Assembly (NCBI GenBank): GCA_963662465.1
Contig: OY759599.1
Coordinates: forward strand, 2,688,001-2,752,000
Origin: Desulfatiglandales bacterium
GTDB taxonomy: Bacteria > Desulfobacterota > DSM-4660 > Desulfatiglandales > Desulfatiglandaceae
Direction of reading: 5' to 3'
Length of the DNA stretch: 64,000 nt
A model generated the notes under the pieces. That model had not been told where the DNA came from, searched no databases, and worked only from the letters and a program-made list of their open reading frames with translations. The position numbers were made by a program, and so were the translations under genes. Shown in pieces: positions 7,329 through 50,021 of this stretch. Numbering within the stretch: position 1 is the stretch's first letter; every line of letters begins with the position of its first letter.

Positions 7329-10300
7329 GTGGCGACCAACAGCACGTTCACCAGCTATGTGAGCGGGTACCAGAATAAAGACGTGGGCAATGTCACCACG
7401 ATCAACGTTTCAGGTCTGTCGGGCGGCGCCTCCTACTATTATCGGGTGCGGGCGCAAAACGCTATCGGCGCCGGCGAAAACTCCAATACCATCAACGTAG
7501 GCACGGGTGAACTGCCCACCCAGGTGAGCCTGGTAGGACCCGGCACGGTAAACGTGGGAACGGTATCCACGGCCTTTACACTCACCAGCCGGGACAAGAA
7601 CGGAGACCCGGTGGACGTGAATCAGGATACGGTGTTTGATTTGACGTCCACTTCCAGCGCTATTTACGGATTTTACCGGGACAGCACGGGGAAACTAGCC
7701 ATTACCCAGGTCACCATCACCGTTGGAAGTCAAACAACTACCTTTTACTACAAGGATACGGCATCCGGTACTCCCACGTTGACCGCCACCCATAAAAGCG
7801 GCATGACCCTGGGCGCTGCAAACCATTCGATCACCGTGCAGGGAGGAACAGTCTCGGGGATCGTTTTTGATGATCTAAATGGTAACGGCATTCAGGATAC
7901 CGGTGAACCCGGTATCTCGGGCGTCACAGTGAAACTGCTGAACAGTGAGGGGGTTGTTTCAAAGACCGATGCCACCAACAATGACGGCAGCTACCGATTC
8001 ACCAGCGTCAGCGCCGGTATTTACACCGTGGAGGAAACGGATCCCGCGGGATATGCCAGCACCACCGGCAACAGGGTTACCGTATCGGTTTCATCCAATG
8101 GTTCGGCCAGTGCCAATTTCGGTGATCAGAACCAGGGAACCGTTTCCGGCACCGTCTTTCTGGATGTCAACGGCAGCGGCATACAGGATCCAAATGAGCC
8201 TGGCATCAGCGGTGTTACCATGAAATTGATGAACAGCGAAGGAGGTGTTTCCCAGACCGATATCACCGATAATGACGGCAATTATGCCTTCAGCGGCGTG
8301 AGCGCCGGGACGTACAGAGTTCAGGAGACAGACCCCGCTGGTTATACCAGCACCACCAACAACATCGTTCCACTGTCCATCATTTCCGGAGGATCCGCCG
8401 GCGCCAACTTCGGAGATAAGATTCAGGGGACAATTTCCGGTCATGTGTTTCTAGACATCAACGGCAGCGGCATACAGAACGCGGATGAACCGGGGATCAG
8501 CGGCGTTACCGTAAAACTGCTGAACAGCCAGGGGGGTGTTTTAAAAACGGACAACACCGAGGCGAATGGGAGTTACGGGTTTACCGGGGTAACCTCGGGG
8601 GCCTACAAAGTCCAGGAGACGGACCCCGCGGGGTATATCAGCACCACGGACAACACGGTTCCGGTGTCTGTGACCGGTTCAGGGGGTGTGACAGCGAACT
8701 TCGGGGACCAGGAAAGCGGGACCATCTCCGGTACGGTTTTTAGCGACATCAATGGAGACGGCATCCGGAACGAATTAGAAAAGGGTCTTGGGGGTGTAAC
8801 CGTGACACTATTGGTCAATGGATACATGTTGTCCAGTACCCTCACCGGCGGAGACGGCAGTTACAATTTTACCGGGCTGAGCGCCGGCGCCTACACCATA
8901 GAGGAAACGGATCCTTCCGGATATGGCAGCACCACTGACAACAGTATTAGCGTCACTGTGGGCTCAGCGGCCGCCACAGCCAGTTTCGGGGATATTCCCC
9001 TTGGGACCGTATCCGGGGTGGTGTTTAATGACACCAACGGCAATGGTCGACAGGACCCAAATGAAAAAGGGATTGGCGGGGTCACGATAAACCTGCTGGA
9101 TGCCCAGGATGCGCTTGTTGAAACCATTACCACCGCCGGTGACGGGGTTTACCTGTTCCAGAACCTCTCTGCCGGGACTTACACTGTGGAGGAAATCTAT
9201 CCATCCGGCTACACCGGTACAACCATCAACCGGGTAACAGTAACAGTGGGTGCGCAGGCAGCGGCCGAAAGCAGTGTGGCAACAGCGAACCGGGGAGTGG
9301 CAGCCGCCAACTTCGGCGTACTCCAGCAGGAATCCGTATCCGGGGTAGTGTTTAACGACACCAACAGCGGTGGCACGCAGGATTCCGGGGAAAACGGGGT
9401 GGGCGGGGTCTTAATTACACTGCTGGATGACAAGGGATCGACGGTTTCCGGCGCCCATACGGCGGGAGATGGCACTTACGGTTTTTACAACCTGCAACCG
9501 GGTGATTATGACATTGAGGAGACCTATCCAACCGGTTACACCGGCACCACCCCTCGAACCGTATCCGTCACTGTAACCGACGGTGGCGCCGCCACGGCCG
9601 GCTTTGGTATTCTGCAGGGGGACATCCCTGACCAGGTAACCCTTGAGGGTCCATCATCGGCAGCCCTGAACCAAGTATCCAATGTCTTTACCCTCACCAG
9701 CAAGAATAGTAATGGGGATATCTCCAACGTCACAAGCGATACCGTATTTTCCCTTGCGTCCAACTCGACCGGCGCCGCGAACTTCTACAGTGATGCGGCA
9801 GCCACCACAGTCATCACCCAGATGACCATTTTTGACGGTAATAACAGCGCCTCCTTCTATTATAAAGACACGGCGCCGGGCAACCCCACCATCACCGCCA
9901 CTCGCACCAGCGGCATGAATCTGGGAGCAGACACCTATCAAGTAACGGTGAACGGTTCTCCGAACACCCAGGCCGGCAATATCGTTTTCAGTAATATAAC
10001 CGGTACGGGAATGAAGGTGGCCTGGACCCGCGGCAACGGGGAAAAGGTCCTGATTGTGGTACACAAGGGGAGTGCCGTGGACACTAACCCTGTGGACAAT
10101 ACCGCCTATACGGCCAATGCAACCTTTGGTGGCGGCAGTGAGATCGGTACGGGAAACTTTGTGGTGTACAAGGGAACCGGAACGTCTGTGATTTTGACCG
10201 GCCTGTCAGCGGGCTGGATCTATTACGTACGGGCCTATGAATTTAATGATATCGTTGACGAGGTCTATAATACCAACACAGCCGCGAACAACCCCAACAG

Positions 10301-10973
10301 CCAGAGTACTCTCCCCAGTGCGCCGACGGCAACGGCGGCCACCGGCGCCACGGGGACAGGCTTTGCCGCCAACTGGAACGTCGCGACGGGAGCTACGGGT
10401 TACAGACTGGATGTATCGACGGAAACCAATTTCAGCAGTTATGTCACGGGATATCAAAACAAGGATGTGGGAAATATGACCACCGCTTCGGTAACCGGAC
10501 TGATGCCCCTTACGAAATACTTCTACCGTGTGAGGGCTTATCATGCCGGCGGGGTGAGTGAAAATTCCAATACCATCAGTGTCACCACCACTTTCAATGC
10601 CCCGGTAGCAACAGCGGCCACAGCCGTAACTGAGAAAAGCTTTACCGCCAACTGGAACGTCGCGACGGGAGCTACGGGTTACAGACTGGATGTATCGACG
10701 GAAACCAATTTCAGCAGTTATGTCACGGGATATCAAAACAAGGATGTGGGAAATATGACCACCGCTTCGGTAACCGGACTGATGCCCCTTACGAAATACT
10801 TCTACCGTGTGAGGGCTTATCATGCCGGCGGGGTGAGTGGAAATTCCAATACCATTAATGTCACCACAGCAGTCCCTATTCCCACCCTGAATGAATGGGG
10901 TATGATCATCCTGGTGATGCTGATGATGGGTTCGACGCTTTTTGTCATGCGGCGAAAAAAGATGGAAGACTGA
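7329..10973 (+). CDS. giant surface protein, part 3 (FN3, six SdrD-B/Cna-B-like repeats, FN3, C-terminal IPTL-CTERM sorting signal)
   Basis: Six SG.VF.D.NG.G.QD..E.G..GV-type units; C-terminus VPIPTLNEWGMIILVMLMMGSTLFVMRRKK. The reading frame extends upstream to ~7173. Confidence 0.88.
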   Translation: MATNSTFTSYVSGYQNKDVGNVTTINVSGLSGGASYYYRVRAQNAIGAGENSNTINVGTGELPTQVSLVGPGTVNVGTVSTAFTLTSRDKNGDPVDVNQDTVFDLTSTSSAIYGFYRDSTGKLAITQVTITVGSQTTTFYYKDTASGTPTLTATHKSGMTLGAANHSITVQGGTVSGIVFDDLNGNGIQDTGEPGISGVTVKLLNSEGVVSKTDATNNDGSYRFTSVSAGIYTVEETDPAGYASTTGNRVTVSVSSNGSASANFGDQNQGTVSGTVFLDVNGSGIQDPNEPGISGVTMKLMNSEGGVSQTDITDNDGNYAFSGVSAGTYRVQETDPAGYTSTTNNIVPLSIISGGSAGANFGDKIQGTISGHVFLDINGSGIQNADEPGISGVTVKLLNSQGGVLKTDNTEANGSYGFTGVTSGAYKVQETDPAGYISTTDNTVPVSVTGSGGVTANFGDQESGTISGTVFSDINGDGIRNELEKGLGGVTVTLLVNGYMLSSTLTGGDGSYNFTGLSAGAYTIEETDPSGYGSTTDNSISVTVGSAAATASFGDIPLGTVSGVVFNDTNGNGRQDPNEKGIGGVTINLLDAQDALVETITTAGDGVYLFQNLSAGTYTVEEIYPSGYTGTTINRVTVTVGAQAAAESSVATANRGVAAANFGVLQQESVSGVVFNDTNSGGTQDSGENGVGGVLITLLDDKGSTVSGAHTAGDGTYGFYNLQPGDYDIEETYPTGYTGTTPRTVSVTVTDGGAATAGFGILQGDIPDQVTLEGPSSAALNQVSNVFTLTSKNSNGDISNVTSDTVFSLASNSTGAANFYSDAAATTVITQMTIFDGNNSASFYYKDTAPGNPTITATRTSGMNLGADTYQVTVNGSPNTQAGNIVFSNITGTGMKVAWTRGNGEKVLIVVHKGSAVDTNPVDNTAYTANATFGGGSEIGTGNFVVYKGTGTSVILTGLSAGWIYYVRAYEFNDIVDEVYNTNTAANNPNSQSTLPSAPTATAATGATGTGFAANWNVATGATGYRLDVSTETNFSSYVTGYQNKDVGNMTTASVTGLMPLTKYFYRVRAYHAGGVSENSNTISVTTTFNAPVATAATAVTEKSFTANWNVATGATGYRLDVSTETNFSSYVTGYQNKDVGNMTTASVTGLMPLTKYFYRVRAYHAGGVSGNSNTINVTTAVPIPTLNEWGMIILVMLMMGSTLFVMRRKKMED
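10366..10855 (+). repeat. near-identical 211-bp direct repeat (period 279 bp) encoding two FN3 domains
   Basis: 10366-10576 versus 10645-10855; I see one mismatch (A10561 vs G10840). Confidence 0.92.
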
Positions 10974-10996
10974 AGTCACCAAAAGGCTTTTTTCAT

Positions 10997-11322
10997 TTGA
11001 CAAACGAATCCTATAGGCCGGTTCTATCCAAAATCGCCAGGAGACTTTGGATTTCATTTGGAATAGTGGTAGTGGTGCTTATGGGATACAAACAGGGTAT
11101 TTCTCAGTTTGAAGATCGGAAAACGGTTATTGATTCAAAATCCCCGGATAGCGCAGCTATGTTTTATGTGGCCCTTGAAGGGGATGACCGGAACCCGGGA
11201 ACCATTTCAAAACCCTGGGGCACCATCCAACGGGCCGCACGTTCAGCAAAAGCCGGCGACACCGTTTTGATAAGGAAAGGTCTTTATGCCATCAAAGATC
11301 CCATCCGACCTGCCAATCAAGT
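10997..11322 (+). pseudogene. truncated 5' fragment of a secreted DUF1565/parallel beta-helix protein
   Basis: Hydrophobic anchor followed by FYVALEGDDRNPGTISKPWGTIQRAARSAKAGDTVLIRKGLY, the typical beta-helix N-terminal cap. The frame then runs into the 3' end of the convergent dynamin gene. Confidence 0.6.
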
Positions 11323-11331
11323 GCATTCATT

Positions 11332-12873
11332 TTATTCTCCTTTTTCCGACAACCCCGTTTTCACGGGTTCGCCAACGACCTCGGAATACACTTCCTGTTC
11401 CTCAACCGCCGTTTCCGTGGGAGCAGCTTCTTCCGGCGCTTTTCCGGCGGGGTTGGCATAAACATCATTGAGTTTCTGCACATACCCATTGGCATCGGAT
11501 GCCACCTTCGCCAGCCGGGCCAGATTCCGGCGACCCCATCCGGCGGGCTTTCGCCGGAAAATACTGCGCCACCAGAAAGTGTTTTTGGTGAAGGCACGAA
11601 TATAGTTTTCGTGAGTCTCCTTCTCTTCAATCCCGGCCAGTATTTTTCGGGTCGCCTTCCCTTCTGCCCACCTGCGAATACGAAAATGGATATAAATGGC
11701 CACGGCTGCCAGAAACCCTGCCAGGCTCCATTTTCCCCAGGGATTTGACATTACGGTCTCCATATAAGGCAATCGCAGGGAAAACCCGTTCCAATAGCCG
11801 CCCCAAAGGGTAACAGCCAGAAAACACGCCAGCAAAAGCCCGAAAACAATACCGTCCAGCCAACACACACGGGCCCGCCAGTTTTCAAGGAATGCCTGGA
11901 TGCGGGGCGCCGCCTCCTTTTCCAGCATGCGGGCACGCTGTCCCAACATGCCCACGATACGGTACGCTCTCGCCACACGGACTTCCTCGATTCTCTCATG
12001 AATTCGAGCAACATCTTCATCCCGTTTGCGCAAAAAACGTTTCCGCAGGCTTTCGTCCTCAATGGGCATGCCGGCATCCGGATCATAGATGGTAAAGCAT
12101 CGCCCCGCGGTCATCCCCTTTTGCGCCAGTGCCCGCTGCCACGCGGCAAAGACCTGTTCAGGGTTGTCTTCCCGGGCCGTCATATCGATCTGATTGAGAA
12201 TATAGAGAAATTTGTTCGAATCATTTCTGTGAATCGTCCCCTTTACAAGGGTTTCAAGGGTATCACTCATGGAACCCGACTCCGGGTGCCGAGCATCAAA
12301 AAAAACCAGCACCAGATCGGACAAAGCCATAATATGGTTGGTTATTTTCAACGTCGCCGTTCGCTGGGCGTCGGCGTCGAATCCGGGAGAATCAATGATG
12401 ATCTTGCCCCGAAGCTTTTCACTGGGGCAGGTCTTCAGCTGCAAATAGGCATCCAGCCGTTGGCCTTCGCCGGGAGTCGCCCCGTCGATGGCCTCGGTGA
12501 TCCGATACAAGGGAAATCGAGGGTCCGCATCCAGGGCAAGCCCCGGGAGCTGTCGGACCCTGTCTTCATCACTGAAACAAATCACCGTAAATTTGTTGTC
12601 CACCGCCTGGTTTCCGGTGGCCTGCAGTTTGTAATTCAGGTACCGATTGATAAAGGTGGATTTTCCCGAGGAATAAACCCCGAGTACCGATATAAGGGGC
12701 CACCAGGGCACGCTGAAGGCATGGGATTGTTCTTTCGTAAAAAGGCCCATCTGCCGACTCACCAGATCCAGTTCTTTGAAACTCCTGACCACTTCCACCA
12801 ACACGGGGTTTTCCTGCTCCAGGTGCTGTTCCAGGCTTTTGATGCGGTGCTTAAGGGGATTTGATTCAACCAT
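11332..12873 (-). CDS. dynamin-family (EHD-like) P-loop NTPase with two C-terminal transmembrane helices
   Basis: G1 GVYSSGKST, G3 DSPG, G4-like NQID, LVFFDARH; hydrophobic segments near aa 340-400. Confidence 0.85.
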   Translation of the reverse strand: MVESNPLKHRIKSLEQHLEQENPVLVEVVRSFKELDLVSRQMGLFTKEQSHAFSVPWWPLISVLGVYSSGKSTFINRYLNYKLQATGNQAVDNKFTVICFSDEDRVRQLPGLALDADPRFPLYRITEAIDGATPGEGQRLDAYLQLKTCPSEKLRGKIIIDSPGFDADAQRTATLKITNHIMALSDLVLVFFDARHPESGSMSDTLETLVKGTIHRNDSNKFLYILNQIDMTAREDNPEQVFAAWQRALAQKGMTAGRCFTIYDPDAGMPIEDESLRKRFLRKRDEDVARIHERIEEVRVARAYRIVGMLGQRARMLEKEAAPRIQAFLENWRARVCWLDGIVFGLLLACFLAVTLWGGYWNGFSLRLPYMETVMSNPWGKWSLAGFLAAVAIYIHFRIRRWAEGKATRKILAGIEEKETHENYIRAFTKNTFWWRSIFRRKPAGWGRRNLARLAKVASDANGYVQKLNDVYANPAGKAPEEAAPTETAVEEQEVYSEVVGEPVKTGLSEKGE

Positions 12874-12877
12874 TGCG

Positions 12878-12950
12878 ATATTTTTTTCCTTTTTTACTTA
12901 AAACTTAAAACTTAAAACCACGCCTGAACGGGCTTTTCATTCAGGCGCTA
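12878..12950 (-). mobile_element. truncated copy of MITE-like element (hairpin end plus TTTTAAG heptamers)
   Basis: Minus strand TAGCGCCTGAATGAAAAGCCCGTTCAGGCGTGG(TTTTAAG)3TAAAAAAGG, homologous to 55511-55622 and 60161-60305. Confidence 0.75.
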
Positions 12951-14189
12951 CATATGCTTATCGATATACACCGTCAGTTTTGCCAGGCTATACACATAGC
13001 TCCCGTATTCGTTGTCATACCACCCAAAAATCTTGGCGTGGGTCACCGGCAGTCTCACGTCATAGGCCTCCTTCATCCCGCATTGGATCAGCATCTCGGA
13101 CGGAATATGCAAGAATCCCGTACGCGTATGGGTGTCGTGCCCTTCCAGCACCACGGACGCCTGAAAACCGATGATATCCGCCGAAACATTCTGCTTTTCA
13201 CTGAAAACGAGCAACCCTTTCTGTGCGCCATTAGCGGCTTCTTTGTAAATATTATTCAGAAAATCACGATTCACCACCGGCGCCCCGGAATCGTTCATGG
13301 GAGAGGAAAAGGTCACATTCAAAACAATCAAAGACGCCGTATTGGTGGGTATCCGCACGGAATCCGCCATAAAACCGAATTTCCGGATCTCGGGCAGCAC
13401 CTGCTCAAGGGCCTTGGCCGCCCCCGTGGAGGTCAGGATAATATTGTTAAAAATGGAACGGTTTTTTCTCAGATCCTCGGCGCCTTTCTTGGGCGACGAA
13501 TCCAGAATGCTCTGGGTACTCGTGGCCGCATGGATGGTAGACATGGAAGCCGTCAGAATTTTGTTGGTTTCACTGTTTTCCAGCAGGGGCTTGATCATAT
13601 GACTCAGCCCGGTGGTGGTGCAACTTGCGGCGGAAATCACATGATGCCTGGCGGGATCAAAATCAAGATGGTTGATGCCGTAAATGAACATGCCGCTGTC
13701 TTCCGGCATTTTTCCGGCTTTGTCGGCGATTTTGGTGGGAGCGCTGATGATAACTTTTTCGGCGCCTGCCGCCAGATGCCCCCTCACGCTGGGCGTTTGG
13801 CTCCCCGAAGGCACGGTGGGATCTTTATGTGCCCCCGTACACTCCACCACCAATCGCACCCCGTACTGACGCCAGTTGATATCCTGGGGATTCCTGGCGG
13901 TTCTGAGAATCGTGACCGGCAGCCCGTCAACTTCAAGCAACCCTTTTTCGCTATCCAGAATTTTGATGTCAAAGGCGTTTTCGGAATACCCATACAAAAA
14001 CCGATTGAGGGTTCCATAGGTGGAATCTCTTGCAATGGTATGCACAACCGCCTCAAGCCCGGTCCCCACTTCTCTCCCGATATTCACGACAAATCCATCA
14101 AAATGTCGAAGCCGAATTTGTTCCCATAAGGTTAATTTGGCAATCCGACCCAGCCCATTAATTCCCAAAAGATTCTGATTATCAAACAT
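12948..14189 (-). CDS. gap: divergent glyceraldehyde-3-phosphate dehydrogenase-family protein
   Basis: GINGLGRI Rossmann motif, catalytic SAASCTTT, STGAAKA, RIPT and WYDNEYG; 413 aa with insertions. Confidence 0.85.
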   Translation of the reverse strand: MFDNQNLLGINGLGRIAKLTLWEQIRLRHFDGFVVNIGREVGTGLEAVVHTIARDSTYGTLNRFLYGYSENAFDIKILDSEKGLLEVDGLPVTILRTARNPQDINWRQYGVRLVVECTGAHKDPTVPSGSQTPSVRGHLAAGAEKVIISAPTKIADKAGKMPEDSGMFIYGINHLDFDPARHHVISAASCTTTGLSHMIKPLLENSETNKILTASMSTIHAATSTQSILDSSPKKGAEDLRKNRSIFNNIILTSTGAAKALEQVLPEIRKFGFMADSVRIPTNTASLIVLNVTFSSPMNDSGAPVVNRDFLNNIYKEAANGAQKGLLVFSEKQNVSADIIGFQASVVLEGHDTHTRTGFLHIPSEMLIQCGMKEAYDVRLPVTHAKIFGWYDNEYGSYVYSLAKLTVYIDKHM

Positions 14190-17100
14190 TAGGCACCTCC
14201 TTCACATACATTGGATGAATATTTGTTCCGCGTGTCATACACAATTTCAGTCGTTTTGATGGCATAACTGCCGCGATAGATATTCCCACGATGACCATCA
14301 ATTGAAATATCATCACCGACTTTGAAAAGGTTTTCGCCAATGGTACACTCCTTCTTCACGTCATTCACAAACAGATCCGCACAATTCACGATGCAGATTT
14401 TTCCGATTTTGGTGGCCGTCACAGCCGCATGGGACGTAACCCCTCCTCTGGCCGTGATCAAGCCGTCACATTTGAAAATCATGCCGATATCATCCGGAAC
14501 GGTATCGGGTCTTACCAGGATAGTCTTTTTTTCCGGATATTTTCCAGCAAAAAGCGCCAGATCATCATCGCCAAATGCCAGGATCCCACTGAGGGCCCCG
14601 CCACCGATACCGATGCCCCTGCCCACAAGGGCCATGTCTTCCATTTTGGGTTCAAACACTTTCACCAGGGTGTCGCACCGAATATTCTGACTGCGAACCT
14701 GGAGGATAAATAGATCTTCAGGTTTGTCGGACTCAAAAGTGAACTCGATTTCCTGATGGGCGAATCCAAGATTTTCAACCAGCTCCTTGGCGATGCCATA
14801 TAATCTCTTGTATATACCCGGAAAGGCCTCCTGAAGAGACGGGCCCTCCAGCCTTAATTGCTTCCGCTGGGTCTTACCCACCGGCAGCGAATGCACCAGA
14901 CCGGAAACGATGTCTTCCCCCTGGCTGCTTAAGTTGAAATCGCCAAACAGATGAACACCGGGCCGGCCGCGCGTCGGGTTGTGAGTAAACACCACGCCTG
15001 AACCCGATGTTTGGCTCCGGTTGCCGAAGACCATTTGCTGAACAATCACCGAAGTCCCCCAATCCTCGGATACCTTGAGGTGTTCACGATAAACCTTCGC
15101 CTGCTCATATAGCCAGGAATCAAACACAATGGAGATGGCCTTTTCCAATTGACGCATGGGATCCTGCTCAAACTCCTGGTTGTGCGCCTCAAGCACATTT
15201 TTGTAGGCAAACGCCACTTCCCTCATCTGCGCAACACTCAAACCGGTTTTGTATTGAACGTGGCATTTCCGTTTATGGTCGGAAATGACCTCGTCAAAGA
15301 CATCCCTTCGAATCGCATTGGCCATCCCCCAGTTTTGCAGCAGGCGACGGTAGGAATCCCATGCCGCCCATCCAAACCCCGGCTTCCTACTCAATGCTTC
15401 GGCAATGTCATCGTTCATGCCCACATTGACCAGCGTCACCATGGCGCCGGGCATGGAGACGGCAGCCCCGGATCTCACGGACAACAGAAGCGGGTTTTCG
15501 GGATTTCCGAATTCCCTGCCGCATATCTTTTCCAGCGCATGGATTTGAAACCTGATTTTTTCATCCAGTTCATCTTTCAACTGCGGATGTTTGTAGATGG
15601 CATGCCGTTCACGATATACCTCGGTGGTCAAGACAAATGCAGGCGGCACGGGAATGCCGGCCCCATACAGTTTTTTTAAAAAATATCCCTTTTCACCCAA
15701 AAATACCTTGTTGTCCATTTTGGGTGATCTTTGATCGAAAGGGCTCACAATCAAATCCGGGTTATACCGCATGATGCTGTTGATAATGTCAGGGCTGAAG
15801 TTGTCCACCATGTTGTGAAGCGTTTTCAAAATGCCGGTGATAAATCCATCAAATTTCTGCAAAAGAAAACAGTTGGATATCATTTCCCGGTTAAACTCTT
15901 CGGTTTTCTGCAAAAGGATTCTGTTTTTGTCTTCGGCGGAAAGGCCGGGCTCTTTCATGAAAAGTTGGGGGACAATCACATTCAGCGGGTATTCGTATGA
16001 TCGGATGAAATACTCATTGATGATTTCACGAATCCGTTCCGCCATAAATTCAAAAATATTGGTATATTGCCCCAGGCTGAAAGTGGAAGACGTCAGGCTG
16101 TATCGGAACATCTGAAGGTTGCTGTTAAACCCCTCGTTGCTGATGCCGTCAAGGGCCATGCCATCCTTGAAATATTCAAGAACCCTGTAAATGCGTTGGA
16201 GACTTGTGGCTGAAATATAGTTCAGATTGATATCATGGATGATGTTGTCCATCAAATGAGCGGCGACCCTTTCAAGCCTGAAAATAAGCCCCATGGCCTC
16301 AAATTTTTTTTCGCGGTAAATACCATACATGGACGGAATTCCGAAAGCCACATGCCGCTTATAATAAATGCTCTCCCATGCTTCGCTATGTTCGGGGTTT
16401 AAAATGATCTGCTTGAGGTTTTCTATAAACAGGAAAACCTTCCTCAACGCCCCTGAATGGTCCTTCTTCTCCATACAGATTTTAAAGTTCGATATCTCGT
16501 CATTGTTCAGGAAGCTGTATCGCTCCAGTATGGAAACAATATTGACGGTGTCAAAAGAATATTTTTCCCGCAGCAAGGCATACAAACGACAGATATGCAG
16601 AAACCTTTTTCGATCAACCTCATCTCCTTCCGGAACCGATGCCAACGCCTGCTCCAGGTCCCGGGGGTCCATATTCAGAAATTTTTCCGGTTTGCAATTC
16701 TGTTTCTCACAAAGGTCTTTCAGCAGGGTATGAATCGGCACAAACCATCTGCCCTTCAAATCAATGGAATCATACACATCCGTGGGAAATCCCCTTTGAA
16801 GGGTTTCCAAATTGCCATCGTACCAGAAACTGAATACTTTTCGGGTCAATTCAATGAGGGTATTGTTCCCTTCAATGTGGACCTGTTTTCTCAAAAAATG
16901 AACCAGTCGATCGTTTCGATGGGACAATTCATCCATGGCCGTGGTCACATGACGGATTTCCCCCTCGGCGCCGATCTCATTGAAATATACCGGAAAAATA
17001 GAGGAAAGCTGTTTTACTTTCTTATAAAAAGGTGAAACATTTGAATTCAGGATGTTGGTGATGTCCCGCTGAAAAAGATCCGTATCCGAGATATAAACGC

Positions 17101-18343
17101 CGCCCAGACGCAAATTAACGATAAGGGCTGAAAGCAGCTTCTCCGGAATGGAGGCGCCATATTTCAATATTTCAAGCCATACCCTGATATTTTTCAGATG
17201 GTTTTCATTGACGTGGGTTTTCCAGTCTTTGTCCACATAAACGATGCCCGGGAACTCAAATCCGAAGTCAATGAGTTTCTTTTCAAAATAATTGACGCGG
17301 AATTTATCCTCTGAATCGTCAATATCAATGATTTTTTTTCCGAGCGTGGCAATACAGTTCAGTATGGGAGAGGTATGATCACGCCGAAATACTTTGAACA
17401 TATCAAATATTTTGTCCAGAAACCCGAATATCTCGCTTAAATCGATTTCCCCCAGCACTCTTGCCAGCAGATAGTTGATATCGCGGATCAGGCGATCTTT
17501 CAGCCCGCTCATTCCGGGAAGATAGAGGAGATAGAAGGTATAGTAAAATTTTTCAATAAACTTGTCGAAGCTATCATTTAATTGCCTGAAATTATTTGCG
17601 ATATCACCATATGAAGGGATATCCTCAACCAGCGCGTCAAAGGTATCCGCCGCCTCTAGTTTTGCTTGAAGATCGGCAAAATATTCATGTCCGAGATTAG
17701 AGATGGCTTTTTGGTAGTCTTGATGGAAAATAGTTTGATTTTCAAGGTACCATTGTTCAATTCCGGTGGTTTCCCGCCAAAAATTGATATTGACGCCTAA
17801 AACATCCTTTGTTAATCCAAATATTTCGTTTTTAAAATCATCAAGATGTGCGGCCTTCCCGAGATGCTTTTTAAAAAACGCGGAACAGCAAATATAGATA
17901 TCACGATTTTTCACCAGGGTTTCTTTCAGCAACCGTATGCACGCTTCAACAATCCCTTTGTGTTTTCCCGGGAACTCCGTCAGCCGATCAATAAATTCCA
18001 CCAGGGTCCTGACAATGGTTTCCTTAAGTTTTGCATCGATACCGGACGATAAAAGTCCTCCCAGACTCTCAACCACCACCAGGAAAGCGTCATCCGAATT
18101 TTCCAGTTCCGAATAAAACCAGAAATCGTTGAGCGCAATGGTCCTGAGTTCCGCCACCACAAAAGCATGGTTCGCATAGGGGTGGTGGTATTCCGTCATG
18201 CACTTTTCAGCCCGCTCATGAATGCCGAAATGAGAACTGGAAAGATCGATAAATTCACGGTACCGTTTCGGCACATGAACTTTAATCTTCCGCGTTTCTT
18301 CTAAATTGACTTTCAGCGCTTCCGATTGAATTTTTTTCTCCAT
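14189..18343 (-). CDS. PPDK/PEP-synthase-like dikinase: ~870-aa unknown N-terminal region, ATP-grasp domain and phospho-His swivel domain; no pyruvate-binding barrel
   Basis: LGEKG..L, IPVPPAFVLTT, PLLLSVRSGA.VSMPG, VQQMVFGN, QGEDIVSG, IEFT..LFILQVR, RGGVTSHAAV. The protein ends shortly after the swivel domain. Confidence 0.88.
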   Translation of the reverse strand: MEKKIQSEALKVNLEETRKIKVHVPKRYREFIDLSSSHFGIHERAEKCMTEYHHPYANHAFVVAELRTIALNDFWFYSELENSDDAFLVVVESLGGLLSSGIDAKLKETIVRTLVEFIDRLTEFPGKHKGIVEACIRLLKETLVKNRDIYICCSAFFKKHLGKAAHLDDFKNEIFGLTKDVLGVNINFWRETTGIEQWYLENQTIFHQDYQKAISNLGHEYFADLQAKLEAADTFDALVEDIPSYGDIANNFRQLNDSFDKFIEKFYYTFYLLYLPGMSGLKDRLIRDINYLLARVLGEIDLSEIFGFLDKIFDMFKVFRRDHTSPILNCIATLGKKIIDIDDSEDKFRVNYFEKKLIDFGFEFPGIVYVDKDWKTHVNENHLKNIRVWLEILKYGASIPEKLLSALIVNLRLGGVYISDTDLFQRDITNILNSNVSPFYKKVKQLSSIFPVYFNEIGAEGEIRHVTTAMDELSHRNDRLVHFLRKQVHIEGNNTLIELTRKVFSFWYDGNLETLQRGFPTDVYDSIDLKGRWFVPIHTLLKDLCEKQNCKPEKFLNMDPRDLEQALASVPEGDEVDRKRFLHICRLYALLREKYSFDTVNIVSILERYSFLNNDEISNFKICMEKKDHSGALRKVFLFIENLKQIILNPEHSEAWESIYYKRHVAFGIPSMYGIYREKKFEAMGLIFRLERVAAHLMDNIIHDINLNYISATSLQRIYRVLEYFKDGMALDGISNEGFNSNLQMFRYSLTSSTFSLGQYTNIFEFMAERIREIINEYFIRSYEYPLNVIVPQLFMKEPGLSAEDKNRILLQKTEEFNREMISNCFLLQKFDGFITGILKTLHNMVDNFSPDIINSIMRYNPDLIVSPFDQRSPKMDNKVFLGEKGYFLKKLYGAGIPVPPAFVLTTEVYRERHAIYKHPQLKDELDEKIRFQIHALEKICGREFGNPENPLLLSVRSGAAVSMPGAMVTLVNVGMNDDIAEALSRKPGFGWAAWDSYRRLLQNWGMANAIRRDVFDEVISDHKRKCHVQYKTGLSVAQMREVAFAYKNVLEAHNQEFEQDPMRQLEKAISIVFDSWLYEQAKVYREHLKVSEDWGTSVIVQQMVFGNRSQTSGSGVVFTHNPTRGRPGVHLFGDFNLSSQGEDIVSGLVHSLPVGKTQRKQLRLEGPSLQEAFPGIYKRLYGIAKELVENLGFAHQEIEFTFESDKPEDLFILQVRSQNIRCDTLVKVFEPKMEDMALVGRGIGIGGGALSGILAFGDDDLALFAGKYPEKKTILVRPDTVPDDIGMIFKCDGLITARGGVTSHAAVTATKIGKICIVNCADLFVNDVKKECTIGENLFKVGDDISIDGHRGNIYRGSYAIKTTEIVYDTRNKYSSNVCEGGA

Positions 18344-18608: not shown

Positions 18609-19193
18609 ATGAAAAAGACATTTATTGCGGCACTTTTACTGGTTCTATCCATTCATCCGGCAGCTTTTGGCGGCCTCTCGGACAATCCACGGGTCGTCAT
18701 GGAAACATCCAAGGGAACCATTGTTCTGGAGGTTTTTCCCGATGAAGCACCCGAGACCGTAAAAAACTTTTTGCAGTACGTGAGATGGGGACACTATGAC
18801 GGGACCATCTTTCACCGGGTAATTCCGGACTTCATGATTCAGGGCGGCGGTTTCACGCCGGACATGAAACGGAAAAGCACCGAAATGTCCATCCCAAACG
18901 AGGCGCACAACGGCCTGAAAAACGCACGGGGAACAGTGGCCATGGCGCGTACGCCGGATCCCCACAGCGCCACGGATCAGTTCTTCATCAACACCAAGAG
19001 CAATGGTTTCCTGAACCACACCAGCGAAACCCCACGGGGGTGGGGATATACCGTCTTCGGCAAGGTGGTCAAAGGGATGGACGTGGTGGATGCCATCTCA
19101 GGGGTCAAAACCGCCAAAAAGGGCATGATGGGCGACGTTCCGGTGACACCGGTCCGGATCATCAAAATGACCATTGAAGGCAATGGGAAATAA
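18609..19193 (+). CDS. periplasmic cyclophilin-type peptidyl-prolyl cis-trans isomerase
   Basis: Signal peptide; FHRVIPDFMIQGGG, GTVAMART, QFFIN, GYTVFGKV. Confidence 0.95.
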   Translation: MKKTFIAALLLVLSIHPAAFGGLSDNPRVVMETSKGTIVLEVFPDEAPETVKNFLQYVRWGHYDGTIFHRVIPDFMIQGGGFTPDMKRKSTEMSIPNEAHNGLKNARGTVAMARTPDPHSATDQFFINTKSNGFLNHTSETPRGWGYTVFGKVVKGMDVVDAISGVKTAKKGMMGDVPVTPVRIIKMTIEGNGK

Positions 19194-19208: not shown

Positions 19209-19526
19209 TTACGCCATCTCGATGATAACGGTTCCTTTCGGCAAAATCTGCCCCTGTTTGGCATGAATCTTCTTGATAATGCCTGAAAACGGGGCCGTAA
19301 CCTTGTTGATCATTTTCATGGCTTCCAGAGAAAGCAACTCCTGGCCTTTAGCCACCGGATCCCCTGCCTTGACAAATATATCTTGGATCGTTCCCGGAAG
19401 GCTGTTCTTTACCATTTTCGGATTCTCTTTTTCCCACTTAGGCCGGTTTTCAAACTTGGCGGTATGGCGGGTCAAATAAAGGGTTCCATCGATATTGAGT
19501 AATTTATATTTTTTTTCGGTTGTCAT
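19209..19526 (-). CDS. biotin carboxyl carrier (biotinyl-domain) protein
   Basis: LEAMKM biotinylation motif; adjacent to a carboxyltransferase. Confidence 0.9.
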   Translation of the reverse strand: MTTEKKYKLLNIDGTLYLTRHTAKFENRPKWEKENPKMVKNSLPGTIQDIFVKAGDPVAKGQELLSLEAMKMINKVTAPFSGIIKKIHAKQGQILPKGTVIIEMA

Positions 19527-19538
19527 GGTTCCAGTTCC

Positions 19539-21083
19539 CTAAAATGGCGGAATGCCGTGTTTCTTCTCCGGCCGCGACTCGACTTTGTATTCGGAAATTT
19601 CAAGGCAGTGCAGTAAAATGTCCCTTGTCTCCTCCGGTTCGATCACCGAGTCAATATATCCTTTCGAGGCCGCCACAAAGGGGTTGGAAAATTTGTCTCG
19701 GTATTCCTCGATCTTCACCTGTCTCATGGCTTCGGGATCTTCAGCCGCGTTGATCTCCTTTCTGAAAATAATATTGGCTGCGCCCTCGGGTCCCATGACC
19801 GCAATTTCAGCGCCGGGCCAGGCAAAAACAAAATCCGCTTTCAGATGTCTGGAGTTCATGGCAACATATCCGCCGCCATAGGCTTTTCGGAGGATTACCG
19901 TAATGCGCGGCACGCTGGCCTCGCTGTATGCATACAGCAACTTGGCGCCGTGACGGATCACGCCCGCATGCTCCTGGTCGATTCCGGGCAGGTATCCGGG
20001 CAGATCTTCAAATGTGATCAGGGGGATATTGAACGCATCACAATATCGAATAAACCGTGCGGCCTTGTCGGAAGAATCACAATCCAGAACCCCTGCAAGC
20101 ACCAGTGGCTGATTGGCCACAAAACCCACGGGACGGCCATTCATTCGGGCAAAACCGATGACGATATTGCCTGCCCATCTCTCATGAACTTCAAAAAAAT
20201 GCGAACTGTCCACCACCGCCCGGATCACATCCCTGACATCGTAGGGCAGGGCCGGATCACTGGGGACAATTTCCTCTATTTTTCTCCCTTTTCTGGGCTT
20301 TCTGGGCGGCAGTATCACCGGTTTCTTGGTATTGTTCCAGGGGATAAAGCTGATCAGGTCTTTGATCTGTTCGAAACATTCCGTTTCGCTTTCAGCAAAA
20401 AAATGAGCATTGCCGGTGATTTCACAGTGGACTTTAGCGCCTCCCAGATCCTCCATGCTGATTTCTTCTCCCAGGACAGTCTTGATGACTTGGGGACCAG
20501 TAATAAACATTTGTGAAATTTTATCCACCACAAAAACAAAGTCGGTCAGTGCGGGCGAATAAACGGCGCCCCCCGCGCATGGACCGAGGATAACGGATAT
20601 TTGAGGGATAACGCCGGAAGCAATGGCGTTCCGATAGAAAATCTCGCCATAGCCCGCCAGGGAATTTACGCCTTCCTGGACACGGGCGCCGCCGGAGTCA
20701 TTGATACCGATAAGGGGAACCCTCAATTTCATGGCATGGTCCATGATTTTGGTAATTTTATGGGCATGCATCAGGCCCAGAGACCCGCCTGCCACCGTAA
20801 AATCCTGGGCATAAATACACACGGGTTTTCCGCTTATCTTTCCGGTGCCGGTAATGACGCCGTCACCGTGAAGAATCTTTTTGTCCATATCAAAATCTCT
20901 TGCCTCATGCTTGGCAAAAAGATCGTATTCCTGAAATGAATCTTTGTCCAAAAGCGCTAAGATCCTTTGTCTGGCCGTCATTTTGCCCATGGCCGCCTGC
21001 TTTTCAGTAGCCTTGCGCCCGCCGCCCTGGAGGGCCTCAGCTCTTTTTTTGATCAAATCAAGCGTTTTTTTCTTTAAAGACAT
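19539..21083 (-). CDS. acyl-CoA carboxylase carboxyltransferase (beta) subunit (PccB/MmdA family)
   Basis: GDGVITG, QDFTVAGGSLG, DSGGARVQEG, GPCAGGAVYSP, RKAYGG, KKHGIPPF. Likely start at MSLKKK (21083). Confidence 0.93.
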   Translation of the reverse strand: MSLKKKTLDLIKKRAEALQGGGRKATEKQAAMGKMTARQRILALLDKDSFQEYDLFAKHEARDFDMDKKILHGDGVITGTGKISGKPVCIYAQDFTVAGGSLGLMHAHKITKIMDHAMKLRVPLIGINDSGGARVQEGVNSLAGYGEIFYRNAIASGVIPQISVILGPCAGGAVYSPALTDFVFVVDKISQMFITGPQVIKTVLGEEISMEDLGGAKVHCEITGNAHFFAESETECFEQIKDLISFIPWNNTKKPVILPPRKPRKGRKIEEIVPSDPALPYDVRDVIRAVVDSSHFFEVHERWAGNIVIGFARMNGRPVGFVANQPLVLAGVLDCDSSDKAARFIRYCDAFNIPLITFEDLPGYLPGIDQEHAGVIRHGAKLLYAYSEASVPRITVILRKAYGGGYVAMNSRHLKADFVFAWPGAEIAVMGPEGAANIIFRKEINAAEDPEAMRQVKIEEYRDKFSNPFVAASKGYIDSVIEPEETRDILLHCLEISEYKVESRPEKKHGIPPF

Positions 21084-21200
21084 AACAATGTAACCTTTTG
21101 AAAAATCTTCATTAAAAAAAATGCTCACAGCCGCCGGTTTGGCCCCCTCGATAAGATTACGCGGGGTTCCCATCACCACGGCTGGAGCAATATGATGATA

Positions 21201-21599
21201 TCATTTTACAAATTCGAAGAGGCTGAACTTAGACGCTTTTTTATCAAAGGTCAAAACAGCCTCGCAACCCTTTATTTGAGCAGAATGCGCAATCAGAAGG
21301 TCCGAAAGATCATAGGTATTTCCATTTGCGGCATGTACGAATTGTTGTAAAGCTGACTGGCAATCAAATTTTAAAATCGGCATCAATAAAAGGTCGCTGA
21401 TAGAATCCAGAATTTCAGCTCTTGAAATTTCATAAACAGATTCTAAAACCCAAATCATTTCTAAAACAACAAGCAATGGCACAAATAGTTCGTTTTTCTC
21501 TGACTCCGCTTTTTTGAACATTGTATAGACTTTTTTTGATTGCAGTTCATCATCACCCACTAAAAACCGAATCAAAATATTCGTATCCAGTGCCTTCAT
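21201..21599 (-). CDS. vapC: VapC-family PIN-domain toxin
   Basis: ALDTNILIR..E..WVL..D.LIA..LTFD PIN acidic residues; overlaps the antitoxin by 4 nt. Confidence 0.9.
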   Translation of the reverse strand: MKALDTNILIRFLVGDDELQSKKVYTMFKKAESEKNELFVPLLVVLEMIWVLESVYEISRAEILDSISDLLLMPILKFDCQSALQQFVHAANGNTYDLSDLLIAHSAQIKGCEAVLTFDKKASKFSLFEFVK

Positions 21600-21844
21600 T
21601 TGAATTTGACCCTCATTCTATTTCTGATGGCATCGTCCATATTTTCAAGGGATACGGATTCTCTTCCGGGTTTATGCAATTTGCGGAAAATTTCGTCTAC
21701 TTTTTTAGACACAGGTCTGATGATGGCCTCTCTTTTTTCCGTGAGAATAATCTCAATTTTGTCACCGGTATTTAATTTTAGAGAGTCTCTAATCATTTTG
21801 GGAATAGTCACCTGCCCCTTAGTGGTGATGGTCGCTAACGCCAT
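21596..21844 (-). CDS. AbrB/MazE/SpoVT-family antitoxin
   Basis: ATITTKGQVTIPK.IRD.L.L..GD AbrB fold, upstream of the PIN toxin. Confidence 0.9.
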   Translation of the reverse strand: MALATITTKGQVTIPKMIRDSLKLNTGDKIEIILTEKREAIIRPVSKKVDEIFRKLHKPGRESVSLENMDDAIRNRMRVKFK

Positions 21845-48707: not shown

Positions 48708-50021
48708 TTGGCACGACCATACTGCGTCATAGAGATTTACACCAACGAAGGGGCACGGTGTCATGGGCAAGACATTCCGGAAGCCGTCATCAATTACGTT
48801 CGCAAATTGAAAACATCCGCACGCTGCGCTGTTTTCAAGGGGATCGAGGGATGCTATGAAAACGGAGAAGTATCCACCCGGAAAATCATGGATCTGTCCC
48901 TCAATCAACCCGTTAAAATTGAGATTGTCCTGCCCGCCATGGAAGCCACCACCATAATGGCGGACCTTCAGAACATCGTGTGCGAGGGAATTCTGGGCAC
49001 CCGCGAGCTGCTCGTGATTTCCCATCGAACCCGAAAACGCTTGTTTCCGCCCCAAACCCGGGTGAAAGACGTTATGACCGTGAAACCGGAAACCGTGGCT
49101 CTCCATGAATCAGCGGATCGGGTCATGAAAACCCTGCTTTCCACCAATTTCACGGGCGTGCCCGTGGTGGATCCGGAAAACCGACCGGTGGGCGTCATCT
49201 CCCAAAGCGATCTCATATACCGCGCCGGCATGCCCGTAAGACTGGCGCTCATGGAACACTCCGACCCTGAAAAAGTGAAAGCCGTGATGGCGGAGTTGTC
49301 CACAAAAATCGCCGGGGACATCATGACAAAGCCGGCCATCATCGTTCAGGAATCTGCTCTGCTGACCCATGCCGTTGACACGATGCTGAAAAAAAAGGTG
49401 AAACGCCTGCCCGTGGTGGATGAGGCGGGCTTTTTAACAGGCATTGTCTCCCGGCTGGACATTTTTCAAACCGTTACCCGGACCGCGCCCGATTGGGAAC
49501 GAATGCAAAAGAATGACGTTCATGTGGGAGATATTCGATACGTCGATGAAATCATGCGACGGGACGTACAAAGGGTGGGACCTGATACGCCGGTAAGTGA
49601 AGTCTTAGGCATCATCGACAGCGACGATATTCAACGGGTGGTGGTCGTCGATCGGGATGGCCGTCTCATGGGCCTTATCTCGGATCGAAACCTCTTGTCG
49701 GCCTTTTCGGACGAGGCGCCGGGCATATGGGAAGTATTGTCCCGGCTGACCCCGTTTGCCACAAAATCAAAGCATGCCGGAAAAATCCGCCACAAACTGG
49801 AAAATCAACCGGCCCGGACCATCATGGAAACCGACATCATCACCATACGGGAGAAAGCCGGTATCGAAGAGGCCATTTCCATCATGACCGACCGCGGTAT
49901 CAAAAGGCTGCCGGTGGTAAATGATATGCATATTTTCAAGGGGATGATCAGTCGTGCGGATCTTCTCAAGGAAGGGTTTTCCGCCATGAAGGATTTAACG
50001 CTCACAAATGACTCCCTTTAA
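48708..50021 (+). CDS. DUF190 (PII-like) domain fused to four CBS domains
   Basis: IEIYTNE..VFKGIEG..DLS.N.PV.IEIV, then CBS motifs (VPVVD..GVIS..DL). Confidence 0.85.

Follow-up and report, generated by a model that had tools for sequence, protein, structure and literature searches.

We analysed a window of 64,000 nucleotides of Desulfatiglandales bacterium DNA (assembly GCA_963662465.1, contig OY759599.1, positions 2,688,001 to 2,752,000), in which the gene for a 1384-amino acid (aa) dikinase-like protein, here named DK, overlaps gap2, the gene for a 413-aa glyceraldehyde-3-phosphate dehydrogenase (GAPDH) homologue; positions given below are those of the window. We propose, at a probability of roughly 40%, that DK is a reversible dikinase, linked to AMP and pyrophosphate (PPi), that converts 3-phosphoglycerate (3-PG) and 1,3-bisphosphoglycerate (1,3-BPG) into each other in the service of GAPDH. 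The DK system is real, widespread and apparently uncharacterised. Roughly one in three of the Desulfobacterota genomes sampled has a family member, as do many Bacteroidota, and databases name DK and its relatives pyruvate phosphate dikinase (PPDK), which DK cannot be in the usual sense. A full-text literature search, with most subscription papers outside its scope, returned no study of the family, and the consulted part of PMC8100219 covers PPDK and phosphoenolpyruvate (PEP) synthase and describes no DK-like protein.

The gene pair and its co-occurrence

The genes and their junction are as follows.

14189..18343, reverse strand: DK, the barrel-less dikinase gene (1384 aa), from its open reading frame, Pfam domains and motifs
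12948..14189, reverse strand: gap2, for a type I GAPDH paralogue of 413 aa that has conserved insertions, from its open reading frame, Pfam, NCBIfam and conserved residues
14187..14200, reverse strand: GGAGGT ribosome-binding-like site and TAATG stop/start overlap, read from the sequence
12920..12948, reverse strand: terminator-like hairpin of 11 bp, directly 3' of the gap2 stop

The open reading frames, the TAA/ATG overlap and the motifs GGVTSHAA, SAASCTTTGL and FMADSVRIPT are all present as described in the original prediction, a model's reading of the bare sequence. The TAA of DK (14191-14189) and the ATG of gap2 (14189-14187) have one base in common in the TAATG at 14191-14187, an overlap that suggests translational coupling of the two genes, and GGAGGT lies upstream of the gap2 ATG at 14200-14195. 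A public contig covers the junction (12655-17072) with zero differences, and its sequencing run may be the source of the window's assembly. Neither expression nor co-transcription was seen in two metatranscriptome assemblies, whose pieces were short and came in many cases from relatives. The position of the hairpin suggests a two-gene unit at this locus, and position alone points there, terminator-like hairpins occurring in the region at the chance rate (9 found vs 10.2 expected). The same genome also holds an ordinary gapA, a pgk and a full ppdK, together with two more barrel-domain genes, so that the DK-Gap2 pair is an addition to these.

Among 401 Desulfobacterota genomes, 132 match the N-terminal region of DK and 127 have Gap2. 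Eight of the 132 were weak matches (best E above 1e-40) and were set aside, five belonging to a distant subfamily, two being fragments and one marginal. Every genome with a strong DK match has Gap2 (124/124), 124 of the 127 Gap2 genomes have DK, and 266 genomes have neither; kin genomes are non-independent, and these figures are given without a statistic. The expectation that the two genes would keep company elsewhere was thus borne out, nearly one to one across the Desulfobacterota.

The gene neighbourhoods tell the same story for GAPDH in general. At the best 80 loci a GAPDH gene is found at 64 (55 short forms, 9 Gap2), and at 51 of the 54 of these that have both flanks longer than 1.5 kb; most Bacteroidales loci have a short GAPDH head to head with DK. 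We also picked 40 diverse loci across families from the 132 Desulfobacterota matches: 36 have GAPDH (Gap2 at 31, the short form at 19, both at 14), and seven have the gene order gapA-DK-gap2-pgk-tpi-secG. GAPDH is the sole neighbour retained throughout, no other pathway gene being a conserved neighbour. Where clusters have split, DK has remained beside gap2 in certain lineages and beside gapA in others, and gap2 goes with pgk-tpi. The predicted link between DK and GAPDH is therefore strong, whereas the 413-aa Gap2 proved not to be its obligatory partner, because most Bacteroidales among 50 profiled genomes lack it; they pair DK with an ordinary GAPDH, and a distant DK clade is likewise found with other GAPDH types.

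The GAPDHs adjacent to DK fall in at least three groups, which fits a shared metabolite. It has also to be considered that DK is an energy-sensing regulatory kinase or scaffold, whose large helical region would bind the GAPDH tetramer and whose phospho-His, or transfer of its phosphate to a GAPDH residue, would switch GAPDH activity or direction in the manner of VadK, a PPDK relative described below. A stoichiometric complex of this kind would fit both the near one-to-one co-occurrence with Gap2 and the stop/start overlap, as well as the finding that DK stays with a GAPDH when the operon splits, pgk accompanying gap2 in L164, L168 and L169. Three different groups of neighbouring GAPDHs are harder to reconcile with it, and two DK genomes have one GAPDH each (G076 and G425), where an isoenzyme switch would be needless. 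We consider a regulatory role, the strongest competitor of our proposal, somewhat unlikely.

Some minor observations concern the GAPDH partners. Most Bacteroidales that lack Gap2 have a GAPDH of 487 aa of the PRK08289 type, a form not seen in the four non-Desulfobacterota genomes that have Gap2 (L155, L158, L160, L174). A dedicated clade of short GAPDHs was unsupported, the DK-adjacent short forms scattering over several groups among those of DK-negative genomes in a FastTree phylogeny. At L163:4593-7902 (G334), gapA and gap2 lie ~1.1 kb apart with no DK between them, an apparent loss; in this genus gapA is fast-diverging, and it is missing in three relatives.

A dikinase without the pyruvate barrel

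Pfam places PF01326 at aa 923-1152 and PF00391 at aa 1271-1353 of DK. PF02896, the PEP/pyruvate barrel, was not found; the presence of the first two domains and the absence of the third had been predicted. No match was found in aa 1-870 at E<=0.1. The C-terminal features are these.

14684..15739, reverse strand (aa 869-1220): PPDK-type ATP-grasp domain, from Pfam and alignment with PPDK
14258..14662, reverse strand (aa 1228-1362): C-terminal phosphohistidine swivel domain, PF00391
14431-14429, reverse strand: codon of His1305, a residue kept in 102/102 members

In the alignment, K885, R957, G966, M968, E1200, Q1215 and R1217 correspond to PPDK K22, R92, G101, M103, E323, Q335 and R337. These nucleotide-site residues and His1305 are kept in all 102 full-length members (M968 in 101), the Thr two residues before the catalytic His (T1303) is kept in 100, and DK has an S-x-P-G-x-M loop of the PPDK type. 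The counterparts of PPDK R92, G101, M103, E323, Q335 and R337 presumably serve the nucleotide site as they do in PPDK. A role for Lys22 there is described in the consulted part of PMC4844700. The phosphotransfer machinery that was read from the motifs is therefore conserved across the family, and the ATP-grasp and swivel domains are homologous to those of PPDK (PDB 1kbl, 1dik; E 2.5e-78).

The relation to PPDK (EC 2.7.9.1; TIGR01828) ends with these domains and residues: DK has no PEP/pyruvate barrel, its swivel is C-terminal, and an 865-aa domain precedes the ATP-grasp. Only 79 residues follow the catalytic His, vs 474 in the full PPDK of the same genome, and the linker from ATP-grasp to swivel is ~28 residues shorter than in PPDK. 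DK falls below the cut-off in all 16 NCBIfam models that it touches, the best being PPDK (TIGR01828) at 373 of 843 bits. DK could in principle still perform ordinary PPDK or PEP synthase chemistry through a novel pyruvate-binding site or with the barrel supplied by a separate protein, and it has ~33% identity to the genome's own PPDK over aa 866-1370 besides its database label. We regard this as very improbable, since PF02896 and any beta/alpha barrel in the structural model are lacking, few residues follow the His, the three barrel matches of the genome belong to open reading frames that are 599, 943 and 807 aa long, and a barrel-domain gene was found in 46 of 50 DK-bearing genomes. The last count also led us to reject the idea that DK replaces PPDK. 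The earlier supposition that DK is not a canonical PPDK agrees with the absent barrel and with the full ppdK elsewhere in the genome.

The second-best NCBIfam match is PRK05878, a barrel-less family (534 positions; 280 bits, cut-off 456) to which VadK (Rv1127c) presumably belongs; its members measure about 500 aa, vs 1384 aa for DK. VadK resembles DK in having a PPDK-derived ATP-grasp and His domain, no barrel, and a gene beside those of central-metabolism enzymes. It differs in its link to the methylcitrate cycle and in having no large extra domain, whereas DK is linked to GAPDH and is longer by 865 residues, among which lies a conserved site. The match to PRK05878 favours a regulatory role for DK, as does the report, in the part of bioRxiv 10.1101/2025.10.30.685616 that was consulted, that VadK autophosphorylates on His, lies beside the enzymes that it affects and is co-precipitated with them; the same part of that report describes no phosphate transfer from VadK to a partner. 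On the features tested DK belongs with none of PPDK, PEP synthase, RPH (the rifampin phosphotransferase, on whose model NF041857 it scores 26 of 999 bits) or VadK, and judged by its sequence it resembles the swivel-histidine dikinases in its working.

The helical region and a predicted second site

The region in front of the ATP-grasp divides into three parts.

17309..18343, reverse strand (aa 1-345): helical-repeat-like region, less conserved, from model and conservation
16214..17311, reverse strand (aa 345-710): conserved core, from conservation (n=287) and model (pLDDT 89.8)
15794..16231, reverse strand (aa 705-850): helical bundle with the predicted docking site of the His swivel, from model and conservation

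AlphaFold2 models aa 1-865 (pLDDT 88.4) as helix almost throughout, with a single beta-hairpin at 656-677. The model agrees with the earlier impression of a helical N-terminal region of ~870 aa and has no pyruvate-binding beta/alpha barrel. In aa 1-345 the conserved positions are E51, H54, N58, W189 and the N-terminal S7/A9/L10/N13. We examined conservation in 287 full-length members, filtered for the His motif and including the distant clade. Sixteen residues are invariant in all 287, namely D420, R464, D471, D478, R485, K486, H489, K594, Y595, K662, R663, H664, P670, S671, G674 and D832; the core thus carries the motif R485-K486-x-x-H489 and a beta-hairpin with K662-R663-H664 and P670-S671. 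Position 815 is E or D in 287/287 members, and R819 is kept in 286. The core is a candidate anion-binding site, and its invariant Arg/Lys/His set would fit a small phosphorylated ligand. In a mutual-information contact search on the 287 sequences the signal came mainly from clade markers, and its result was set aside.

Fold searches returned no clear structural match for the core domain. With aa 1-865 TM-scores were at most 0.19 and the best Z score (10.8) was to designed helical repeats; aa 1-345 gave only generic helical-repeat matches; aa 345-710 gave no Foldseek match at E<=0.001, its best Z being 6.4 (rmsd 2.4 over 83 aligned residues). Neither RPH nor a barrel enzyme is listed in these searches, a listing that does not rule them out. 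A PDB sequence search with the N-region profile and the bundle as queries gave no meaningful match, and the ESM Atlas gave probable self clusters only, or none.

To model the swivel we folded aa 1-865 and aa 1228-1362 as two separate chains, with three controls. The swivel docks on the helical bundle with a score of 0.69, the best control scoring 0.00. In calibration, 116 of 157 solved complexes came up to the same mark, as did 2 of 215 mismatched pairs. At least 96% of contacts were common to the runs, and partner pLDDT was at least 85. The modelled interface covers aa 765-847, with His1305 in contact with E815 and R819 and T1303 in contact with D832, three residues that stood on the conserved list before docking was run. 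The model points to an internal second active site on DK's own helical bundle. The Arg/Glu pair at this predicted site and the invariant Arg/Lys/His/Asp set look catalytic, which counts against a regulatory DK, and both are direct targets for mutagenesis.

A comparable arrangement is known from RPH. There, according to the consulted part of PMC4844700, a C-terminal His swivel travels from an ATP-grasp to a helical acceptor domain and back. By the same account the pair Arg666/Glu667 touches the phosphate of the product, and only the second transfer depends on the pair. The Glu815/Arg819 of DK parallels this pair, the likeness of the acceptor domains being one of analogy and the docking of DK a prediction. 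RPH has the order ATP-grasp, acceptor, swivel and releases phosphate (Pi), whereas DK has the order acceptor, ATP-grasp, swivel and a PPDK-type loop. The acceptor of RPH is a hydroxyl, and the parallel lends some weight to the view that DK is a metabolic dikinase with another small acceptor at the GAPDH step, either a hydroxyl compound such as glyceraldehyde or glycerate or a side product of GAPDH that needs repair. Retention of phosphoglycerate kinase (PGK) in DK genomes (below) likewise removes the need for a 3-PG kinase. Repair of NADHX is unsupported, PF01256 occurring in 39 of 40 DK-positive and 39 of 40 DK-negative genomes, and replacement of that repair by DK was rejected on the same counts; nor is any other pathway gene a conserved neighbour. 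A small acceptor of this other kind seems to us rather improbable.

Gap2 as a probable working GAPDH

Gap2 keeps the invariant C190, H220, T223, T255, R279 and N393 and has the motifs SAASCTTTGL and FMADSVRIPT. In 52 Gap2 rows C190, H220, S189, T191, T223, T255 and R279, which make up the catalytic residues and both anion sites, are invariant. Gap2 shares its catalytic Cys, His and phosphate-site residues with type I GAPDH (TIGR01534, which includes NADP-using anabolic forms) and differs by ~80 extra residues in conserved insertions and by SCTTT for SCTTN in most rows; it scores 296 bits on that model, below the cut-off of 367, and in a FastTree phylogeny its 50 rows group as a single clade with a long branch. 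In all 52 rows N36-x-G38-R39 replaces N-D32. The absent Asp32 binds the 2'-hydroxyl of NAD (consulted part of PMC3728087), and we therefore infer from the sequence that Gap2 prefers NADP.

In three small genomes of 100% completeness among the 80 searched (G076, G114, G425) no GAPDH other than Gap2 was found; in one of these (G114) DK is divided over two frames. A further genome (G147) carries a second, identical copy of Gap2 within a rubisco-prk-gap2-pgk cluster. For both reasons Gap2 likely reduces 1,3-BPG. The claim of a divergent GAPDH with an intact catalytic Cys and atypical motifs thus stood; Gap2 looks like a working glyceraldehyde-3-phosphate dehydrogenase more than like one acting on an exotic substrate. 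The cluster of G147, a 2.0-Mb Desulfobacterota genome, is at L173:4043-8982 and comprises a rubisco large subunit nearest form III, phosphoribulokinase, Gap2 and pgk.

Proposed reaction

In the proposed mechanism ATP would phosphorylate DK's own His1305, with AMP and PPi as predicted products and with Pi used and PPi released by DK. Phospho-His1305 would then swing to the predicted second site (E815/R819/D832) on the N-terminal helical domain, where 3-PG and 1,3-BPG would be interconverted for the GAPDH encoded alongside, and the product of DK would be handed over to that GAPDH. In Desulfobacterota the direction would be mainly gluconeogenic. The reaction 3-PG + ATP + Pi -> 1,3-BPG + AMP + PPi stands at about +4 kJ/mol, and the PGK reaction run backwards at about +19. 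By arithmetic on these textbook standard energies the proposed reaction is favoured over PGK by ~15 kJ/mol in the direction of gluconeogenesis. It would thereby lighten the most demanding step of that pathway or, in reverse, recover the energy of PPi. PGK (PF00162) has no homology to DK, uses ADP/ATP directly and usually occurs in the same genomes, and the two would act on the same pair of metabolites.

A 3-PG/1,3-BPG dikinase would explain the catalytic sites, the basic cluster, the operon position and the varied GAPDH partners together, and we hold this explanation at somewhat below even odds. Several observations weigh against it. PGK is kept in 48 of 50 and 39 of 40 DK-bearing genomes, so that no replacement is needed; PGK would drain free 1,3-BPG unless this were channelled, and from its retention a futile cycle would follow, except where the product is channelled or where cycling is itself a means of making or recovering PPi. 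A domain of 865 aa greatly exceeds what 3-PG requires. Three of the 127 Gap2 genomes lack DK, and GAPDH adjoins DK at just 4 of 66 loci of the distant clade. The calibration of the docking score covered neither two parts of one chain nor these alignments, the docking may pass through likeness to solved swivel enzymes, and the invariant basic residues of the core lie outside the listed interface. Finally VadK, the sole studied barrel-less PPDK relative, is reported to be regulatory in the consulted part of bioRxiv 10.1101/2025.10.30.685616.

If the phosphoglycerate dikinase is real, DK would be a new core enzyme of gluconeogenesis and glycolysis, adding a new reaction to the most studied pathway of biology and a way of making or recovering PPi, with a bearing on the drive of gluconeogenesis and on PPi handling in energy-limited anaerobes. 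The broader proposition, that many anaerobes have a second, AMP/PPi-linked route between 3-PG and 1,3-BPG in which a swivel-His phosphoglycerate dikinase of new fold is complexed with a dedicated NADPH-type GAPDH, we put forward more tentatively still. Should DK prove regulatory, it would join VadK as the second known PPDK remnant that controls a metabolic enzyme, and the retention of both PGK and PPDK would suit that role.

Replacement of PGK by DK as a general rule was rejected on the presence of PGK in 48/50, 39/40 and 5/5 genomes. One 99%-complete genome in 3 contigs (G431; L130, L313) has DK, Gap2, GapA and TPI, and three queries found no PGK in it. The reverse holds for its genus mate G452, where PGK is present and DK gave no match, and 12 of 13 family members have PGK. 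G431 is a single weak hint and may reflect an assembly gap. Membrane pyrophosphatase (PF03030) occurs in 23 of 40 DK-positive vs 37 of 40 DK-negative genomes, a difference that may reflect kinship. As a separate observation, the only pgk of genome G000 (L172:5754-7154; G000:C1 ~5,493,900) is long and divergent (PF00162 257 bits vs ~500) and lies away from gapA-tpi, and the same type is present in DK-negative relatives.

Family spread and variants

Among 7992 scored candidates, 1210 protein clusters match DK aa 1-870, and most of the best 120 of the 1210 have the same length and the two Pfam domains. At 50% clustering 475 representatives match the N region, and an estimated ~1500 stretches stored in the collection of species genomes fit the search patterns. 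Alternative architectures were indicated for 28 of 150 representatives scanned; the four that were read looked like frameshifted or partial copies and were not retained. Two family members (P0178, P0179) have an N-terminal hemerythrin domain, which hints at oxygen or metal sensing.

The distant clade has proteins of ~1455 aa. At its 66 metagenome loci, of which 35 have at least 1.2 kb downstream and 17 have both flanks, a short GAPDH is directly downstream at four and Gap2 at none; the three downstream GAPDHs inspected all lack Asp32. A further subfamily of 1490-1550 aa (L147:6182-10720, L240-L243) has RGDIHW in place of RKQxH and a changed hairpin motif, and may act on a different acceptor. 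No GAPDH was found nearby at five of its loci, four of which have short flanks.

Other features of the window

A dynamin-like GTPase gene (PF00350; 513 aa, two hydrophobic segments) follows gap2 at 11332-12873 on the reverse strand. It was considered as a part of the system and rejected, being present at 2 of 80 and 0 of 40 loci; the gene follows gap2 in just two close relatives (L007, L009). Its end is overlapped by an open reading frame of 188 aa on the forward strand (10895-11461) with a short pectate-lyase-like (Pel9A) stretch, which may be truncated. The remaining genes noted are these.

7329-10973, forward strand: surface protein of 1214 aa with six SdrD B-like repeats, fn3 domains and an IPTL-CTERM-like end
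18609-19193, forward strand: cyclophilin gene, divergent from DK
19209-21179, reverse strand: acyl-CoA carboxyltransferase and biotin carrier genes
21201-21844, reverse strand: AbrB/MazE-type antitoxin and PIN-domain gene pair with a 4-base overlap
48708-50021, forward strand: DUF190 fused to four CBS domains, 437 aa

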